A program made the translations under genes and the position numbers. Of a DNA stretch of 41,475 nt, positions 6,409-25,176 are shown in pieces. The stretch is from an uncultured Candidatus Saccharibacteria bacterium. Lineage in GTDB: Bacteria > Patescibacteriota > Saccharimonadia > Saccharimonadales > UBA7683. The DNA is taken from the NCBI GenBank assembly GCA_964448015.1, contig CAYUUV010000001.1:13147-54621 (forward strand), in the 5' to 3' direction. The notes below the pieces were generated by a model, which saw only the letters and a program-made list of their open reading frames with translations, made no database searches and was not told where the DNA came from. Position 1 is the first letter of the stretch. Every line of letters begins with the position of its first letter.

Positions 6409-8187
6409 TTATGCGGCGATCTCGTAGTTCTTGAGCTTCTTCTTGGTGGTTTCGTCTGTCTTGTTTTGCAGCTTAAGAAGCTGTGCGTAAATACCGTTTG
6501 TTTTGGCAAGTTCGCTTGGCGCGCCCACTTCGTCAACTCGACCTTTTTTGAGGGTAACTATCTGATCAACCTCGGCGATGGTTGAAAGGCGATGCGCAAT
6601 AATCAGGGTCGTGCGGCCTTTCATGAGCTTTTCAAGTGCAGCCTGTACTTCGTGCTCTGATTTACTATCAAGGCTTGAGGTTGCTTCGTCTAAAATTAAA
6701 ATAGGCGCATCTTTGAGCAGTGCCCGTGCAATTGCAATTCGCTGTTTCTGTCCGCCAGAAAGCTTCATGCCTCGTTCGCCAACAAGTGTACCTAAACCGT
6801 CTGGCAATTTCTGAACGAACTCCCAGGCGTTAGCCGCTTTGGCAGCTTTTTCAATATCTTTGGTTGTTGCGTTTGGCCTTCCGTAGGCTATATTTTCTCT
6901 AACCGTACCGCTAAACAAGGTTGCCTCTTGAAACACCACGGCTATGTTTTCGCGCAAACTCTTCTGAGTGACAGTTGTAATATCCGTACCATCAATTAAA
7001 ATGTTACCTGATTGCGGATCATACAGCCGCAGCAACAGATTTGTGATGGTTGTTTTGCCTTCTCCACTTTCACCAACCAAGGCAAGTTTACTGCCCGCCC
7101 GCTGCTCAAAGTTCACGTTCTTTAAAACAGGCTGTTTGTTTTCATAGGCAAAACTAACGTCGTGAAATGTGACGGTGCCTTCAGAAACCTTTAGTCGTGA
7201 GGCACTTACAGCATCAATGATGTCCGGCTGCTCGCTCATTGCTGCAAAGAAATCCTTGCTGTCGGCAATTGCTCGTTGGGTATTATCAACCAACCAGCTC
7301 ATGCTGAAAAGTGGCAAACGAATCAAAACTCCGTACTGAATCAGCAGCACCGTTTCACCGACCGTGAATTTGCCATTGGCGGCTTCCCAGAATATATAGG
7401 CATACACAAAGCCGAAAATAACGTTCAGAACAAGTCGGCGGTAGACATCTTCTTTGTGCCACAAAAGCGACTGCGGATAGGTTGTCTTCACTGTTCTGTG
7501 CATCATTTTAGAAAAGAATGAAGCCTCAGATTTTTCAGAAGTATAACTTTTGGCGACTTTTATCTGGCCAACCACTTCAGCGAAGCGACCGCTGGCAATA
7601 TCGGTATTTTCATTAATATCTTGTTGATATTCCTGCCACTTTTTACTGGTTCGCGAGGTAAACCACAGCACTATTGGGTAGAGTGAAAGAAATAGCAGCG
7701 CAACAACCCAGCTATAACGCGCCACCACAACCAGAGTAAATACGGTACTTAAAATAAACTGTAAGAAGTTGTTACCGAACATATTTACGAACTGTGTCAG
7801 GCCGTAAATTGAACGGTTGAGCCGGCTGATAATCTTGCCTGTCAGTTCCGTTGAATAATAACGCTGACTGAGACTGAGCAGGTGTTCGTAGTACTTTGTC
7901 GAAAGAAAGTGCCGCAACTTGGCCGACATAATATCACCGTAATACCCTGAGATATTGCTGATAATGGTCGAACCAGCATCAGTCAAAAACAGTATGAAAA
8001 CGATCACCAGCACCGGCATCAATTCACTGTGACCACCAACAACACTGGGTAGTCGATCAATCGCCATTTTGGTTAAAATTGGCTGTGTTTGGTTCAGTAA
8101 AGCAATGGCCACCGAGCCAAGCGAAACGCCCAGGTAATACGGCCACAAATGCCGCGCAAATTTAAAAATCTGTCCAATACTCTTCAT
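6409..8187 (-). CDS. ABC transporter, fused permease/ATP-binding protein (exporter type)
   Basis: 592 aa. Six-helix N-terminal domain, Walker A GESGEGKTT, signature LSGGQKQR, Walker B ILILDEATS. The start overlaps the pheT stop by 1 nt (TAATG). Confidence 0.9.
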   Translation of the reverse strand: MKSIGQIFKFARHLWPYYLGVSLGSVAIALLNQTQPILTKMAIDRLPSVVGGHSELMPVLVIVFILFLTDAGSTIISNISGYYGDIMSAKLRHFLSTKYYEHLLSLSQRYYSTELTGKIISRLNRSIYGLTQFVNMFGNNFLQFILSTVFTLVVVARYSWVVALLFLSLYPIVLWFTSRTSKKWQEYQQDINENTDIASGRFAEVVGQIKVAKSYTSEKSEASFFSKMMHRTVKTTYPQSLLWHKEDVYRRLVLNVIFGFVYAYIFWEAANGKFTVGETVLLIQYGVLIRLPLFSMSWLVDNTQRAIADSKDFFAAMSEQPDIIDAVSASRLKVSEGTVTFHDVSFAYENKQPVLKNVNFEQRAGSKLALVGESGEGKTTITNLLLRLYDPQSGNILIDGTDITTVTQKSLRENIAVVFQEATLFSGTVRENIAYGRPNATTKDIEKAAKAANAWEFVQKLPDGLGTLVGERGMKLSGGQKQRIAIARALLKDAPILILDEATSSLDSKSEHEVQAALEKLMKGRTTLIIAHRLSTIAEVDQIVTLKKGRVDEVGAPSELAKTNGIYAQLLKLQNKTDETTKKKLKNYEIAA

Positions 8188-15569: not shown

Positions 15570-16070
15570 ATGGCGAAAGATTCTTCATTTGATATAGTTT
15601 CAGATTACGACATAGCAAAAGTAACAAACGCTGTTGAATCGGCGCAGCGTGAAATTAGTACGCGCTACGATTTCAAAGGCACAAAAGCGGGCCTAGAGTT
15701 CACTGACGGCAACAAAACTGGCGTGACTATTACTGGCGACAACAAATTCCACCTTGATAGCATTGTTGATATTTTAAGAAAGAAGTTAGCAACTTCTGGA
15801 GTAAGCCAGAAAATTTTAGATACCAGCAAAGAACCCACCGAAAATAACATGCAGATGAAGTGGGAACTAGCATTTGTAAAAGGCTTAGATCAAGAAAAAG
15901 CCAAAAAGGTTACAAAACTAATCCGCGATACCTACCCCAAAGTAAAACCACAGGTTCAAGGTGAAGAAATCCGCGTCAGCTCCCCAAAGCGAGACGAACT
16001 GCAAGCAGTTATGCAACTTCTGCGCGAAGCCGACTTCGACTTCCCGCTTGAGTTCACAAACTACCGCTAA
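15570..16070 (+). CDS. YajQ-family nucleotide-binding protein (UPF0234)
   Basis: MAKDSSFDIVS..D...V.NAV..A.REI..RYDFKG... gives full-length family similarity. Start set to ATG 15570. Confidence 0.9.
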   Translation: MAKDSSFDIVSDYDIAKVTNAVESAQREISTRYDFKGTKAGLEFTDGNKTGVTITGDNKFHLDSIVDILRKKLATSGVSQKILDTSKEPTENNMQMKWELAFVKGLDQEKAKKVTKLIRDTYPKVKPQVQGEEIRVSSPKRDELQAVMQLLREADFDFPLEFTNYR

Positions 16071-16164: not shown

Positions 16165-16338
16165 TTTGGAAAGGTTTTGAGGCTCAGGTTGATTCACGTA
16201 CGGGGAGAAAAGATTTTATGTCGGTCTTTGATAGAAAAGTCGGCAAATAAAAAGGCCTTCCGCTGTGTGGCCTAAAAACCACCCGCCGAAGGTCTTGTAG
16301 AGATTATACCTTGTTCGAATATAAGAATGAAAGCATGA

Positions 16339-16440
16339 ATCCGCGTCAGCTCCCCAAAACGAGATAAACTCAAGACAGTTATGCAACTCCTTCGCGAAGC
16401 CGACTTTGACTTCCCGCTAGAGTTCACCAATTATAAGTAG
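16339..16440 (+). pseudogene. Displaced, diverged copy of the last 33 codons of yajQ
   Basis: 102 nt aligns without gaps to 15969-16070 (84 of 102 identical by hand count). It translates to IRVSSPKRDKLKTVMQLLREADFDFPLEFTNYK* and is preceded in frame by TGA. Confidence 0.75.
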
Positions 16441-16449
16441 AGCACTACC

Positions 16450-16995
16450 TTATTCACTGGTGGGCTCGGTGTTTCGTTCAATGATTTTGTGCTTACGCAT
16501 GAACTTCATTCCCGTACGATAAGCGACCCCAGCTATTACAGCGGACCAGCCGATCCCATATACCGCATCAAGCGCATCTGGCGTATTCGCCTCTACTAAG
16601 CTGTTTGTCAAACCGTAAGCCTCTCCTACTACCTGTACCGCACTTGACGCAAAGAATCCCCCAAGTGCTGCAATACGCGCTTTTTTTACAATTTTTTCAT
16701 CTGATTTATTACGCTTAATAGTCTCCTGAGGCATAGTCAGCATAGCAATTGCAAAGCCAGCAGCCATAGTACCTATACCTGCCTCTCTGAAGTTGCCGAT
16801 ATGCGCAGCTATATCAAATGGCTCAGGATATGCACCACGTCTTAAATGTGCTTCCGAAAGTACCTCCAATGTGTCTCCGCTAGAAAATAACGCTATCGCT
16901 TTTGCGCCCAATGTTAGAGCTGGCTTCATTTGCTGCCAATCACTTTGGACTACAGCCTCATGCTGAGGTATTTCATCAAAATAAACTTCACTCAT
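16450..16995 (-). CDS. Hypothetical membrane protein
   Basis: 181 aa from ATG 16995. Several hydrophobic Gly/Ala-rich helices. No family recognised. Confidence 0.6.
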   Translation of the reverse strand: MSEVYFDEIPQHEAVVQSDWQQMKPALTLGAKAIALFSSGDTLEVLSEAHLRRGAYPEPFDIAAHIGNFREAGIGTMAAGFAIAMLTMPQETIKRNKSDEKIVKKARIAALGGFFASSAVQVVGEAYGLTNSLVEANTPDALDAVYGIGWSAVIAGVAYRTGMKFMRKHKIIERNTEPTSE

Positions 16996-17001
16996 TTTTT
17001 T

Positions 17002-17031
17002 ATTATAGCATATATTATATACTTGTGTCAA
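17002..17031 (-). promoter_or_regulatory. Consensus sigma70-type promoter positioned for a leaderless transcript
   Basis: Minus strand TTGACA (17031-17026), 18 nt, TATAAT (17007-17002), then AAAAAA and ATG 16995. No SD is present. Confidence 0.5.
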
Positions 17032-17060: not shown

Positions 17061-17612
17061 ATGGAAATTACCTATTTTGTACATAGTATTACGAAAGATA
17101 ATGAGCGGGGCGTGGCTTCGGGGTGGCTTGAGGCAGAGCTTTCTGAAGAAGGAATGAAGCGAATTAAGCAGTTACCTGAGCTGGTGAGCGATGATTCGTT
17201 TGAAGTGATTTTTCCGTCTGATTTAAAACGAGCGATTGATTCGGCCACAATCCCGTTTAGTAAAACACATACAATTATGCCGGATAAACGCCTGCGCGAA
17301 GCAAACTATGGCGATCTTGATGGCACGCCAAAAGTTTTTAAAAAGCAGATAAAGAACTACATTGATACTCCGTATCCAAATGGAGAAAGCTATCAAGATG
17401 TCGAAAAGCGTATGCGCGAGTTTTAAGAAGAAAAGAGCGCCGAAGGCTGGCAACATATTGCAATCTTTGGTCACGAAGCCACCCAACTTGCGCTAGAAGT
17501 CATCTGCAACAGCAAAACATGGGAAGAAGCGATTGATGATGACTGGCGCCCAACACAGAGCTGGCAGCCAGGATGGGTGTACGGCTTTGAGATAACAGAT
17601 AGTAGCAATTAG
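17061..17612 (+). pseudogene. Histidine phosphatase (phosphoglycerate-mutase-like) family gene interrupted by an in-frame TAA
   Basis: MEITYFVHSITKDNERGVASGW... runs to TAA at 17424-17426. The same frame then continues as EEKSAEGWQHIAIFGHEATQLALEV... to TAG at 17610. The RHG arginine is replaced (FVHS). Confidence 0.6.
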
Positions 17613-22255: not shown

Positions 22256-22284
22256 AAAAAACTCCCCGGCTTTCGGGGAGTTTT
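22256..22284. terminator. Bidirectional intrinsic terminator
   Basis: AAAAAA-CTCCCCG-gcttt-CGGGGAG-TTTT, between the convergent MIP gene and the 131-aa gene. Confidence 0.75.
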
Positions 22285-22295
22285 ACTTCTCTCAG

Positions 22296-22691
22296 CTATG
22301 TAGTATGTCTACCCTGTACTACCGCCTTGGCAATATCTCCTACCAGCACATCATTAAATGCGCTGCAACGCATCGGAAATGCTACCGATACTTCAACTGC
22401 ACCGTCTTGAAGATCATCATATGTTTCACGCATCGTAACCCGTTGCTCACACAAGTTACAGATGTAGTGAGCGGATGCTCTGTTATTTGATGAGCTACGA
22501 AACGCTGACTGCAAATCCGCTGCATCAAATGCCGCTTCTGGCAAAGTTTGACTTTGATCTGCACCTTCTACAGCCCGTTGAGTCGCAAGTTCCCCGTCAA
22601 ACTCAACAGCAGCTCGGAGTACACAGGCACTGGCAGGTAACCCGTTTCGATCACACCGTGCAATAAATGTCCTTCTTTCAATATCTCGCAT
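22296..22691 (-). CDS. Hypothetical protein (131 aa), apparently monocistronic
   Basis: It has its own candidate promoter, an SD (AGGAG) and a terminator. No family recognised. Confidence 0.5.
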   Translation of the reverse strand: MRDIERRTFIARCDRNGLPASACVLRAAVEFDGELATQRAVEGADQSQTLPEAAFDAADLQSAFRSSSNNRASAHYICNLCEQRVTMRETYDDLQDGAVEVSVAFPMRCSAFNDVLVGDIAKAVVQGRHTT

Positions 22692-22789: not shown

Positions 22790-23323
22790 TTAAAGCTTTA
22801 GTTGAGCAAGCTGCTGATTCAAAGTGGAGCGATTTTTCACTATGACCACCCTGTTCTGCGGCTGCTCCGCAAGCAGTGCGAGTATTCTTGGCTTATGCGA
22901 ACGCTTGAATTCAAACACTTTTTTGATCAGTTGGAGGTTGAACTGTTCCCGCCAGCCTTCAGGCATATCAGTGCGCGTATGAGTACCTCTATACATCATG
23001 CGTCTTTTCAAGACACCGTTTAGGGCAGTTGTGGTCGGATAGTCCAGAAAAATTACTAGATCCGCAGCCGGGATACGCAGATCAAGCGTACTTGTGTAAT
23101 TACCGTCCATAATCCACGCTGGCTCCTTGAGTAGTTCGGCAATATGTTTGCGCCACTGTTTGCATTTTTGATCAACATCATTACTCCACCGATTCTTTGC
23201 ATGCCAATCTTTATCCAGGTGCAATACTGGCAGCTTAGTTTGCTCTGCAAGCTTTATTGCTAGGGTACTCTTACCAGTCCCCGGGCAACCAATAAGTACG
23301 ATTCTTTTGACGGGCTGTTTCAT
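22790..23323 (-). CDS. P-loop NTPase, adenylate-kinase-like (topology-modulation-protein-like)
   Basis: 177 aa. Walker A GCPGTGKST, then LPVLHLD..W and WIMDGNY patterns. Confidence 0.8.
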   Translation of the reverse strand: MKQPVKRIVLIGCPGTGKSTLAIKLAEQTKLPVLHLDKDWHAKNRWSNDVDQKCKQWRKHIAELLKEPAWIMDGNYTSTLDLRIPAADLVIFLDYPTTTALNGVLKRRMMYRGTHTRTDMPEGWREQFNLQLIKKVFEFKRSHKPRILALLAEQPQNRVVIVKNRSTLNQQLAQLKL

Positions 23324-23340
23324 GACACTAGTATACCCCC

Positions 23341-23405
23341 TATACGTTTCGTCCGCAGATTCTTATCTAGGACTCATCAGAGCAGTTCTTTACTACTGAC
23401 GTATA
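23341..23405 (-). ncRNA. Type III hammerhead self-cleaving ribozyme
   Basis: UAUACGUC|AGUAGU-AAAGA-ACUGCU-CUGAUGA-GUCCUAGAU-AAGA-AUCUG(C)GGAC-GAA-ACGUAUA. The full conserved core is present, with three helices of 6, 9 and 7 bp and a GUC cleavage triplet. Confidence 0.85.
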
Positions 23406-23624
23406 TGAGGCTGCTGGTGCGAAGTTATTCCCGACCTTCGGGACTTCGGCAGCCAGCGGGCCTCTTTACAGGCTGTGCCTTATTCTCGGTTTATATCAGT
23501 TTGCACTGAACTTCCTCGAGACCGTACACTCACGCTATCTTTCCTGCACTACATCAAAAACGACACGGTCGTGCTATTTTTGATGTATGATAGCCTACCC
23601 TCGCTGTTTCATCAGGACTCCCTG

Positions 23625-23652
23625 AAAAAACAACTCTCTCGCTTGCGCGAGA
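23625..23652 (-). terminator. Intrinsic terminator after the 76-aa gene
   Basis: Minus strand UCUCGC-GCAA-GCGAGA followed by GAGUUGUUUUUU. Confidence 0.6.
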
Positions 23653-23709
23653 TTTTACCTCCGGGGAGAGGTGAAGTTTTGTCACAGACTACTTAGGATA
23701 AGCCGTTTT

Positions 23710-23940
23710 TTACACCGTCTTATCCAAGGCGGCTTCTGCAAGCGTCTTCCGGGCTACTTCCAGCGCGTCATCATAGGAGATGAGAACTGTGATGTAGGTT
23801 TCCCCTTCAACGTACCGCTCTTTTATCAAATCCGTGCTCATCTGTAGCACTTTGACGTCTGCATGCTGAGCAGCGTAGTCGTTGAGCATCTCGCTGACTT
23901 TGTCGCCTCCGTACGCCTGTATGACTGCAAACTTCTTCAT
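23710..23940 (-). CDS. Hypothetical small protein (76 aa)
   Basis: Strong SD GGAAGGAGGTG, 5 nt upstream of the ATG. No family recognised with confidence. Confidence 0.7.
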   Translation of the reverse strand: MKKFAVIQAYGGDKVSEMLNDYAAQHADVKVLQMSTDLIKERYVEGETYITVLISYDDALEVARKTLAEAALDKTV

Positions 23941-24018
23941 TTTTTCACCTCCTTCCAGAGGTGATTCTCTCGATTTCTCGAGGTACGTAGGGTTGCCGTG
24001 TTGCGACCCTATTTTTTT

Positions 24019-24048
24019 ATTATAGCACTTTTATATATGTTATGTCAA
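24019..24048 (-). promoter_or_regulatory. Consensus sigma70-type promoter of the 76-aa gene
   Basis: Minus strand TTGACA (24048-24043), 18 nt, TATAAT (24024-24019). It directly abuts the rmuC stop codon. Confidence 0.55.
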
Positions 24049-25134
24049 CTAGCCATCTATAAGGGGTTTGTCGAGGCTGAGAGGTTCAACACCAGGAACG
24101 GTATCGGCAATTTTTACGATATCTTTATCAATCTTCTTCAATTCTTTATGGGCATTGTTGTAGTGGTTCACGGTGGTTCCCAGGCTGCCGCCGAGCTTTT
24201 GCATGAATGCGTCGTAAGCACCAATGTGCCGTCCAAGCTCGCCGACACGTTTTTGTATATCTTTAGCCTGCTCTTCTATCTGGAGGCTTCTAAGGCCTTG
24301 TAAAACGGTCTGAAGGTAGGCCATAAAGCTGGTGGGGCTGACAATAATGACGTGTTTTTCTTGAAAGGCGTATTCAATCAGGTCTCGGGAGTTCGTTGCG
24401 GTAGTGCCAACTTTATTGATAAGTAGGTCGTAATATAGAGATTCTGATGGTATGAACATAAAAGCAAAATCCATGGTATTTTCATTCGGCCTGATGTACT
24501 TACTTGTTTCATCTATCCGATTTTTCAGATCAACTTTGAACTTTTTAACAATCGCCTCTTTGCTAGACTTATCACCTTCTTCAATCAGGCGATTGTAGTT
24601 TTCTAGACTGAACTTAGAATCTATCGGTAAAACTTGATCACGATCCAAAAATATTACTGCGTCTACCGTTTCGCCATCTTCAAACTTATACTGCATCTGA
24701 AACTTGCCGGGTGGCATCACATTTTCAAGCACAGATTGTAGGTAGTATTCCCCGACCACCCCGCGCTGCTTCGGGTTCTGTAAAACATTCTGCAGCGTCT
24801 TGAGCTCATCAGCTACGTCTACCACGCGCTTGTTTGTTTCATCAAGCTTTGTAAGCCGCTGCGTGACATCAGCGATAATTTTTGCCGATTGCGCAAATTG
24901 CCGCTGAATTGATTCGTTAGTCTGCACTTGATTCTGATGCAATTTTTGACTGATGTTTTCTTGCAGACTTTCTTTCAGTTCGCCAACGCCGCGATTTAAG
25001 TTATCAATATCGGTTTTGAGCATCTGTGAAGCTTGATCATCGCCCATACCCGAAAGCTTCTTATTCATTACAAACAGCATTACGGCAAAGCCAACCACCA
25101 AAATCACAATCATGATAATCAAAAGTGTTTCCAT
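24049..25134 (-). CDS. rmuC: DNA recombination protein RmuC
   Basis: N-terminal membrane helix, long coiled coil, C-terminal RmuC nuclease-like region (FAFMFIPSESLY...VIIVSPTSF). Start set to ATG 25134; the GTG start in the track runs through a palindrome. Confidence 0.85.
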   Translation of the reverse strand: METLLIIMIVILVVGFAVMLFVMNKKLSGMGDDQASQMLKTDIDNLNRGVGELKESLQENISQKLHQNQVQTNESIQRQFAQSAKIIADVTQRLTKLDETNKRVVDVADELKTLQNVLQNPKQRGVVGEYYLQSVLENVMPPGKFQMQYKFEDGETVDAVIFLDRDQVLPIDSKFSLENYNRLIEEGDKSSKEAIVKKFKVDLKNRIDETSKYIRPNENTMDFAFMFIPSESLYYDLLINKVGTTATNSRDLIEYAFQEKHVIIVSPTSFMAYLQTVLQGLRSLQIEEQAKDIQKRVGELGRHIGAYDAFMQKLGGSLGTTVNHYNNAHKELKKIDKDIVKIADTVPGVEPLSLDKPLIDG

Positions 25135-25150
25135 AGTACCCCAATGCACC

Positions 25151-25176
25151 GCCTGAGTCGTGCGCACGACTCAGGC
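25151..25176. repeat. Perfect 26-bp palindrome just upstream of rmuC
   Basis: GCCTGAGTCGTGCGCACGACTCAGGC equals its own reverse complement. Confidence 0.9.

Follow-up and report, generated by a model that had tools for sequence, protein, structure and literature searches.

What does a self-cleaving ribozyme do between two ordinary host genes of a very small bacterium? This question is raised by a locus on a 41,475-nt chromosome piece of an uncultured Candidatus Saccharibacteria (TM7) bacterium (contig CAYUUV010000001.1 of assembly GCA_964448015.1, positions 13,147 to 54,621; this whole stretch is called the window below). The window carries pheS, pheT, gap, trxB and similar housekeeping genes, and its TypA is up to 91% identical to proteins of Saccharibacteria metagenome-assembled genomes (MAGs); no tRNA genes were found in it. 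On the minus strand, at 23341..23405, a type III hammerhead ribozyme precedes the gene of a P-loop kinase. The ribozyme is contained in an apparent insert of about 725 nt, which separates the kinase gene from the upstream gene for RmuC. Our preferred explanation, held with moderate confidence, is that this orphan-gene insert ends, on its 3' side, in a cis-acting type III hammerhead, which cleaves read-through transcripts and thereby uncouples the two RNAs.

Identity of the ribozyme and its family

On the minus strand, the segment from 23405 to 23341 reads UAUACGUC/AGUAGU-AAAGA-ACUGCU-CUGAUGA-GUCCUAGAU-AAGA-AUCUGCGGAC-GAA-ACGUAUA, the slash marking the predicted scission site. Rereading of the letters confirmed this sequence together with all stem, core and scission coordinates given in a preliminary description, which had been made from the sequence alone. 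Stem III consists of 7 bp (23405-23399 with 23347-23341), stem I of 6 bp (23397-23392 with 23386-23381) closed by loop I (AAAGA), and stem II (23373-23351) of 9 bp with one bulged C, closed by loop II (AAGA). The core is complete, comprising CUGAUGA (23380-23374), GAA (23350-23348) and C17 (23398), and the core-adjacent pairs 1.1-2.1 (A23397-U23381), 10.1-11.1 (G23373-C23351) and 15.1-16.1 (A23347-U23399) are all present. Helices I and II are loop-closed and both the 5' and the 3' end lie inside open helix III, which is the type III topology. Scission is predicted at a GUC triplet, between C17 (23398) and A1.1 (23397). No open reading frame (ORF) of at least 40 aa overlaps the motif on either strand, in agreement with its earlier description as non-coding.

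Unconstrained folding gives a minimum free energy (MFE) structure of -18.9 kcal/mol in which part of the ribozyme core is paired. The hammerhead fold, at -17.5 kcal/mol, lies within 1.4 kcal/mol of it and becomes the MFE structure once the core nucleotides are held unpaired.

Among the models of the Rfam hammerhead clan, Hammerhead_3 (RF00008) fits best. It matches 23405..23341 over model positions 1-54 of 54 with 48.0 bits, and posterior probability is '*' across the core. The E-value is 7.5e-10 in a local search and 1.2e-7 for the whole 41-kb window on both strands, where this is the sole Rfam match with E<=1. The gathering score of the family is 48.5 bits, and a scan of the window at Rfam gathering thresholds reported no match. 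The covariance-model search proposed in the preliminary description thus gave a clear hit by E-value and none at the threshold. In comparison with RF00008, the full core, the three helices with III open, the GUC triplet and the full-length match are common features, whereas stem II of the window ribozyme is long (9 bp plus the bulged C) and its loop I is larger. The score is lost in 9 extra nt of stem II and 4 extra nt of loop I, and we attribute the shortfall to the effect of the long stem II at the threshold and do not count it against membership. Standard annotation would miss the ribozyme because of this half bit. The best-known type III members come from viroids, satellite RNAs and plants, whereas this copy resides on a Saccharibacteria chromosome.

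A second covariance model (R1) was built from 44 other Patescibacteria type III hammerheads, the window sequence being left out. R1 gives the window ribozyme 48.8 bits (rough E 2.8e-12) and no other match in the window more than 16.2 bits.

Relatives of the ribozyme were searched for in a set of one genome per species (185,579 species, 596 Gb). A strict type III pattern, CGUC...CUGAUGAGUCC...GGACGAAACG, found 55 genome loci (L167-L221), compared with about 0.6 expected by chance according to our own arithmetic. Judged by record titles, about 27 of them belong to Saccharibacteria and about 13 to other Patescibacteria. A second, non-overlapping pattern, UGUC...GAAACA, found at least 120 loci (L276-L394), and about two thirds of the approximately 80 matches listed with titles are Patescibacteria. 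Patescibacteria MAGs carrying hammerheads with the GUCC/GGAC stem II include Saccharibacteria, Paceibacterota/Parcubacteria and others; this type III form appears to be concentrated in Saccharibacteria and other Patescibacteria. In viral contigs, the strict pattern found 54 stretches. Many loci contain 2-4 ribozymes in one orientation, spaced by 300-2000 nt. A metagenome scan for the own stem I of the window ribozyme gave no match.

An alignment of 45 Patescibacteria type III hammerheads, the window copy included, is 97.6% paired, and 13 of the 17 pairs have changed on both sides. Its covariation score is 0.648, as against 0.163 in shuffled alignments and at most 0.096 with slid partners, in sequences that were partly preselected for pairing by the search rules. 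Compensatory changes, which the preliminary description had proposed to look for at homologous loci, were therefore found at the level of the family; the two homologous loci are identical to the window and show no variation. An unusual stem II is common to the window ribozyme and five other Saccharibacteria ribozymes (L195, L199, L206, L210, L219). It consists of 4 bp, a bulge or internal loop and then a second helix of 4-5 bp, which itself covaries.

The identity of the element as a complete type III hammerhead, as first described, is supported by the Rfam model, the leave-one-out family model and family-level covariation. To a chance match with the hammerhead consensus we attach practically no probability. 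It might be argued from the 0.5 bit missing to the Rfam gathering score and from the plain MFE structure, which pairs part of the core; it is effectively refuted by the window-wide E-value and by the R1 score, and the loci found by the strict pattern in such excess over expectation are real hammerheads with covarying stems.

The insert between RmuC and the kinase gene

The ribozyme and all flanking genes are encoded on the minus strand, in the order RmuC (24049..25167; Pfam RmuC, 2.5e-58), a 76-aa ORF, 304 nt of non-coding DNA, the ribozyme, 17 nt, the P-loop kinase gene (22790..23323), a 131-aa orphan ORF and a strong terminator. The earlier assignment of the downstream gene as P-loop kinase-like is borne out by its 177-aa product, which belongs to the adenylate kinase / 'DNA topology modulation' family according to Pfam (AAA_18/28/33) and the names of homologues, and which is conserved beside RmuC in relatives. 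The spacing of 17 nt from the last ribozyme base (23341) to the ATG (23323) was also confirmed. Directly 3' of the ribozyme stands GGGGG (23336..23340, minus strand), the likely ribosome-binding site of the kinase gene.

About 725 nt separate RmuC from the kinase gene in the window. In three relatives that keep the synteny (L001, L002 and L003), the two genes are 6 nt or 44 nt apart or overlap by 8 nt; RmuC of L001 is 94.5% identical to that of the window. In a further relative (L087), tblastn matches to RmuC and to the kinase lie about 400 nt apart. Since RmuC and the kinase gene are nearly contiguous in relatives, the window carries an insert of about 725 nt, and judging from this comparison the insert containing the ribozyme is lineage-specific.

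Relatives were gathered via RmuC, as a peptide-pattern search of genome contigs with the kinase protein returned no loci. Among 83 scanned Saccharibacteria RmuC loci (L001-L003, L085-L164), no hammerhead was detected by regular expression except for two in L114, and homologues of the 76-aa or the 131-aa ORF were found in none of them. Two other contigs carry the locus (L165, L166), both 100% identical to the window and originating from SRR12712864 and SRR12712865. The two ribozymes in L114 (7545-7598 and 8457-8509, plus strand) are near-identical type III hammerheads 912 nt apart, which flank a GC-rich 197-aa orphan ORF and differ at three places, in loop I, N7 and loop II. A convergent ORF has its stop codon 1 nt from the end of the second ribozyme; its product was interpreted as the C-terminal portion of a putative MGH1-like glycoside hydrolase. 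The same contig has a weak RAGATH-10 match at 6846-6917 (25.7 bits, E=0.095).

The insert begins with a sigma-70-type promoter directly after the RmuC stop codon (24019..24048, minus strand). It reads TTGACA-18-TGCTATAAT with the extended -10 element (TGC)TATAAT, agrees with the consensus at 12 of 12 positions and is one of only two such sites in the entire 41-kb window. The predicted 5' end of the insert transcript forms a 10-bp hairpin (23987..24012, minus strand). A terminator scan listed this hairpin as a plus-strand terminator; it is more likely the A-rich start and 5' hairpin of the minus-strand transcript, and the same TATAATAAAAAAAT follows the other perfect promoter. That promoter (17002-17031, minus strand) likewise reads TTGACA-18-TGCTATAAT, and 17 nt, TGCTATAATAAAAAAAT, are common to both. 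With an ATG only 6 nt past its -10 element, it may produce a leaderless mRNA of an ORF ending at 16450.

The orphan 76-aa gene (23710..23940, minus strand) has a strong Shine-Dalgarno (SD) sequence, GGAGGUG, that can pair with an upstream anti-SD sequence (hairpin 23964-23943). Its protein has no relative except itself among 5.8 billion protein clusters, where it comes from a single strain, and belongs to no Pfam or PHROG family. The AlphaFold2 model (predicted local distance difference test, pLDDT, 81) is a small alpha/beta fold of the order beta-alpha-beta-beta-alpha, for which no PDB match below E 0.05 was found.

Between the 76-aa gene and the ribozyme, the non-coding stretch (23406..23709, minus strand) is highly structured, a 397-nt fold having z=-8.0. 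Two putative terminator-like hairpins were detected in it by a consensus scan, both on the minus strand: UCUCGCGCAAGCGAGA (23637..23652), with a U-run starting 6 nt past the stem, and ACGACCGUGUCGU (23560..23572), followed by UUUU and with an A-tract on its 5' side. The earlier statement that the ribozyme lies downstream of the terminator of the 76-aa gene is thus reasonable. A long stable hairpin (23407..23464, minus strand) ends 1 nt 5' of the ribozyme; it appears in the fold of the predicted 5' product, and the 50 nt upstream of the ribozyme have -23.1 kcal/mol and z=-3.9. An Rfam scan of the insert by E-value gave weak matches alone (E>=4.9), judged to be chance, and neither RAGATH nor any other family was recognized.

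Two short repeats were noted. The 10-nt direct repeat ATGAAACAGC occurs at 23612-23603, where it opens a 5-codon mini-ORF, and at the kinase start, 23323-23314, 289 nt away. The anti-SD/SD hairpin UCACCUCU..GGAGGU is present twice, at 23653-23674 and 23943-23964, 290 nt apart. The ATGAAACAGC repeat is suggestive of an insertion footprint; however, its inner copy lies within the insert and the flanking units have no significant similarity. A view of the non-coding stretch as a decayed duplicate of the 76-aa unit was rejected for lack of significance, as 17 of 300 and 47 of 300 shuffles reached such scores. The string 'GAGUC-CUGAUGA-AAC' at about 23620-23605, which resembles a stem-deleted hammerhead core, was treated as chance and unproven, CTGATGA alone being expected about five times in the window.

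A recurring layout of ORF, hairpin and ribozyme

A stable hairpin directly 5' of the ribozyme was found in most of some 340-350 related ribozymes, in genomes and viral contigs alike. For the first 158 ribozymes, the 50 nt upstream have median z of -3.0 in genome loci and -3.1 in viral contigs, with 61-74% of values below -2, as compared with a median near 0 and 14% below -2 for the 50 nt downstream. An independent set of 182 ribozymes gave medians of -2.07 upstream and -0.04 downstream (Wilcoxon p=9e-20). The hairpins of the family are not followed by a U-tract. Possible roles are capping of the upstream cleavage product at its 3' end or insulation of ribozyme folding from upstream sequence. 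In a subgroup (L195, L199, L206, L207, L210, L219, L220), the 10-15 nt between hairpin and ribozyme contain a short conserved sequence, CCACGUGCU(Y)U, which is missing from the window copy.

From the end of the upstream same-strand ORF to the ribozyme there are usually 30-100 nt (in viral contigs median 35, interquartile range 30-43). The distance from the ribozyme to the next start codon is broad across the family, and about one third of the nearest downstream ORFs lie on the opposite strand according to naive ORF calls. These calls also make the Pfam fractions rough: at most 3 of 55 upstream ORFs have a Pfam domain (about 6 of 88 by family-table count), compared with at least 13 of 29 (about 15 of 88) downstream ORFs, whose identities include EF-Tu, thioredoxin, cytidylate kinase, peptidase M1 and transporters. 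The position of related ribozymes is tied more closely to the 3' end of an upstream orphan ORF and its hairpin than to the start of a downstream gene. The unit appears to be a small ORF of unknown function, a hairpin and a ribozyme, sometimes repeated and often placed beside an ordinary host gene.

Given that the window ribozyme is part of the insert and that its family tracks the upstream ORF and hairpin, its link to the kinase gene is probably secondary. The placement ahead of the kinase gene, emphasized in the preliminary description, is accordingly right as to position and needs refinement as to affiliation: the ribozyme belongs to the insert and follows its ORF and hairpin.

The reverse view, that the ribozyme serves the kinase gene as a processing or regulatory element of its 5' untranslated region (UTR), constitutive or conditional, and determines where the mRNA starts, how stable it is or how well it is translated while the insert is incidental, seems unlikely to us. 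It draws on the 17 nt to the ATG with GGGGG directly after the ribozyme, on similar distances of 16-18 nt to a downstream start codon in L179, L182, L188, L200 and L214, and on a halovirus hammerhead located 13 nt ahead of a start codon (according to passages of PMC3088659). In addition, UAUAC downstream of the ribozyme is complementary to the 3' strand of stem III, and pairing of the two would place GGGGG in a loop; the alternative hairpin has, however, only 5 AU-rich pairs. Relatives with the same synteny, L087 among them, lack the ribozyme in the regular-expression scan of L001-L003 and L085-L164, and it arrived with the insert; in the family it is the upstream distance that is tight and the downstream one that is broad, with many of the nearest downstream ORFs on the opposite strand by the naive calls.

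As to the alternative hairpin itself, UAUAC pairs with GUAUA of stem III at 23329-23347 (minus strand) and leaves GGGGG in a 5-nt loop. This weak hairpin is present in MFE folds and could matter after the 8-nt 5' fragment departs.

Repeated units are best seen in two Saccharibacteria-like MAG contigs, L220 and L221, where an ORF of about 140 aa, a hairpin and a hammerhead recur as a unit about every 600-630 nt, in arrays of 3-4; the L220 array includes two paralogous ORFs. Such arrays, the two ribozymes flanking one ORF in L114 and the 10-nt repeat ATGAAACAGC (23612-23603 and 23323-23314) might be taken to mean that hairpin and ribozyme mark a mobility boundary, either as an attC-like DNA recombination site, as in integrons, or by releasing an RNA for circularisation or copying back, in the manner of plant retrozymes. 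We regard this as very improbable for the window. With a single ribozyme, no RNA segment could be cut out by cleavage on both sides; genes for a recombinase or reverse transcriptase were not found nearby, and no second copy of the element was found. Moreover, the left ATGAAACAGC copy lies mid-insert instead of at an edge, and the repeat-bounded units show no significant similarity.

Some family members occur in MAGs assigned to unrelated phyla. The same 51-nt hammerhead occurs in a Polynucleobacter MAG (L172) and a Saccharimonadales MAG (L180), and near-identical ribozymes with homologous upstream ORFs are found in a Methylomirabilis MAG and a Gammaproteobacteria MAG (L167/L176). This suggests errors of binning, or else a phage or mobile element that they have in common.

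Predicted cleavage and comparison with known systems

In order of transcription, the insert comprises a strong promoter, a 5' hairpin, the 76-aa gene, a structured 3' region, the long hairpin and the ribozyme. Since all genes lie on one strand and no terminator-like site separates the RmuC stop codon from the insert promoter, the ribozyme would be contained in any RNA that starts at either promoter and gets past both terminator-like hairpins. Such read-through RNA, started at RmuC or at the insert promoter, would cut itself between C23398 and A23397. The upstream product would end in hairpin-A-UAUACGUC with a 2',3'-cyclic phosphate, a few nt past the stable hairpin. At its 5' end, the kinase mRNA would have an OH group, then 57 nt of folded ribozyme, GGGGG and ATG; that this mRNA should carry the ribozyme body, as had been predicted, follows from hammerhead chemistry. 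If the site is transcribed and cleaved in vivo, the insert RNA would acquire a 3' end that is capped by a hairpin and lacks a U-tract terminator, and the 5' end of the kinase mRNA would be fixed, with possible consequences for RNA stability and expression. The net effect would be to uncouple the insert RNA from the RNA of the host gene.

Several points weigh against this explanation. The two terminator-like hairpins upstream of the ribozyme may prevent most transcripts of the insert promoter from reaching the ribozyme, and between them and the ribozyme no convincing promoter was found, only a weak extended -10 element (TGATATAAA, about 23498-23490) without a -35 element. The 304 nt from the 76-aa stop codon to the ribozyme are much beyond the distance typical of the family. 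The ribozyme falls 0.5 bit below the Rfam gathering score, the identity of L165 and L166 leaves no covariation at the level of the locus, and the covariation of the family comes from sequences partly chosen for pairing. Fast cleavage at physiological Mg2+ requires stems I and II to make a tertiary contact (loop-loop, loop-bulge or pseudoknot), and loop I (AAAGA) shows no complementarity to loop II (AAGA) or to the stem II bulge. A bulge of 3-6 nt on the 3' side of stem II in the extended-stem-II subgroup could act as a tertiary-contact element. Finally, where bacteria have RNase J, a 5'-OH can make an RNA decay faster instead of shielding it; the 5'-OH product of the glmS ribozyme in Bacillus is degraded by this enzyme. 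Cleavage could therefore affect the kinase gene in either direction.

The RAGATH motifs of Weinberg et al. reportedly include variable small ORFs of unknown function beside twister and hammerhead ribozymes. The window insert resembles them in having a small unknown ORF next to a self-cleaving ribozyme, and differs in that it contains no RAGATH match.

Bacterial hammerheads of types I, II and III in intergenic regions have been described since 2010-2011, and passages of two papers report that they often flank small non-conserved ORFs and often have a link to phages (PMC6155905, PMC3088659). According to passages of the second paper, gene-flanking hammerheads of prophages cleave in vitro, and Perreault et al. 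2011 proposed that they process long transcripts into gene-length mRNAs (PMC3088659). The window ribozyme shares with these clustered hammerheads, as far as they are described in those passages, its intergenic position, its orientation on the strand of its neighbours and the adjoining small non-conserved ORF; in contrast, it is single, lies in no prophage and ends a 725-nt insert between conserved host genes. It is the one ribozyme in the 41-kb window, and no integrase or phage-structural match was found among the annotated window genes. The relevant passages of these sources call the roles of bacterial hammerheads unclear (PMC3088659) or an open question (PMC6155905).

The phage link also lends itself to the view that the ribozyme is a functionless passenger or relic from phage or other mobile DNA, maybe slow or inactive, which we consider quite unlikely. 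The insert is indeed lineage-specific and its gene an orphan, similar type III hammerheads are common in viral contigs and often arrayed there, the literature ties bacterial hammerheads to prophages (passages of PMC6155905 and PMC3088659), and no tertiary contact was identified in the window copy. Nevertheless, every core nucleotide and all three stems are intact, as is the upstream hairpin typical of the family; there are no phage genes nearby, and GC content of the insert is only slightly above that of flanking DNA.

Two systems resemble the downstream side of the locus. In the haloviruses HF1/HF2, the hammerhead (HHphage) precedes a helicase start codon by 13 nt, with a mapped 5' end near the cleavage site, as reported in passages of PMC3088659. 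Both ribozymes stand a few nt before a start codon (13 there, 17 in the window), that of HHphage belonging to the first gene of a transcript. As far as those passages describe it, HHphage differs in being a core variant that needs high salt, in an early operon of an archaeal virus, whereas the window ribozyme has a canonical core and lies on a bacterial chromosome. RiboJ, a hammerhead combined with a hairpin, normalises 5' UTRs (PMC7536230). It too is situated between an upstream transcript and a ribosome-binding site and gives the downstream mRNA a fixed 5' end (PMC7536230). RiboJ is, however, engineered, and its extra hairpin is 3' of the ribozyme, whereas the hairpin in the window is 5' and would remain on the upstream product. 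The two are alike in function only.

The window ribozyme thus joins the bacterial hammerheads already described. No report was found of the concentration in Patescibacteria: neither it nor the upstream hairpin is mentioned in the passages of PMC3088659 and PMC6155905 that deal with bacterial hammerheads, and no publication was found that joins hammerheads with Saccharibacteria, Patescibacteria or the candidate phyla radiation, although the enrichment may nevertheless have been reported already.

A wider reading, tentative and in our opinion doubtful, is that hairpin and type III hammerhead together represent the 3' boundary module of orphan small-gene cassettes, which would be widespread in Patescibacteria and phage-like contigs, single or arrayed, and co-oriented with host operons, self-cleavage leaving the cassette RNA with a hairpin-protected 3' end and freeing the host mRNA downstream. 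The window insert would then be one recent cassette insertion, and the ribozyme a hallmark of gene-cassette turnover in ultra-small bacteria. Should the layout and the concentration hold genome-wide, they would point to ribozyme-based ending or insulation of transcripts in very small genomes. The locus itself is a clean natural experiment, as RmuC and kinase genes stand back to back in close relatives and are separated here by a promoter-bearing orphan insert ending in a ribozyme; it is therefore a good place for testing what bacterial hammerheads do.

Further features of the window lie outside the insert. The second orphan ORF (131 aa, 22296-22691, minus strand), located between the kinase gene and a MIP channel gene, has no ribozyme. 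It belongs to no Pfam or PHROG family and is without counterpart in the relatives examined. It has a promoter-like site of its own (22750-22723) and the strong terminator near 22265-22290. Elsewhere, a 96-nt direct repeat (15968-16063 and 16338-16433, 86% identity, 370 nt apart) is accompanied by a third, partial copy at 17287-17307 and may represent a duplicated gene fragment.

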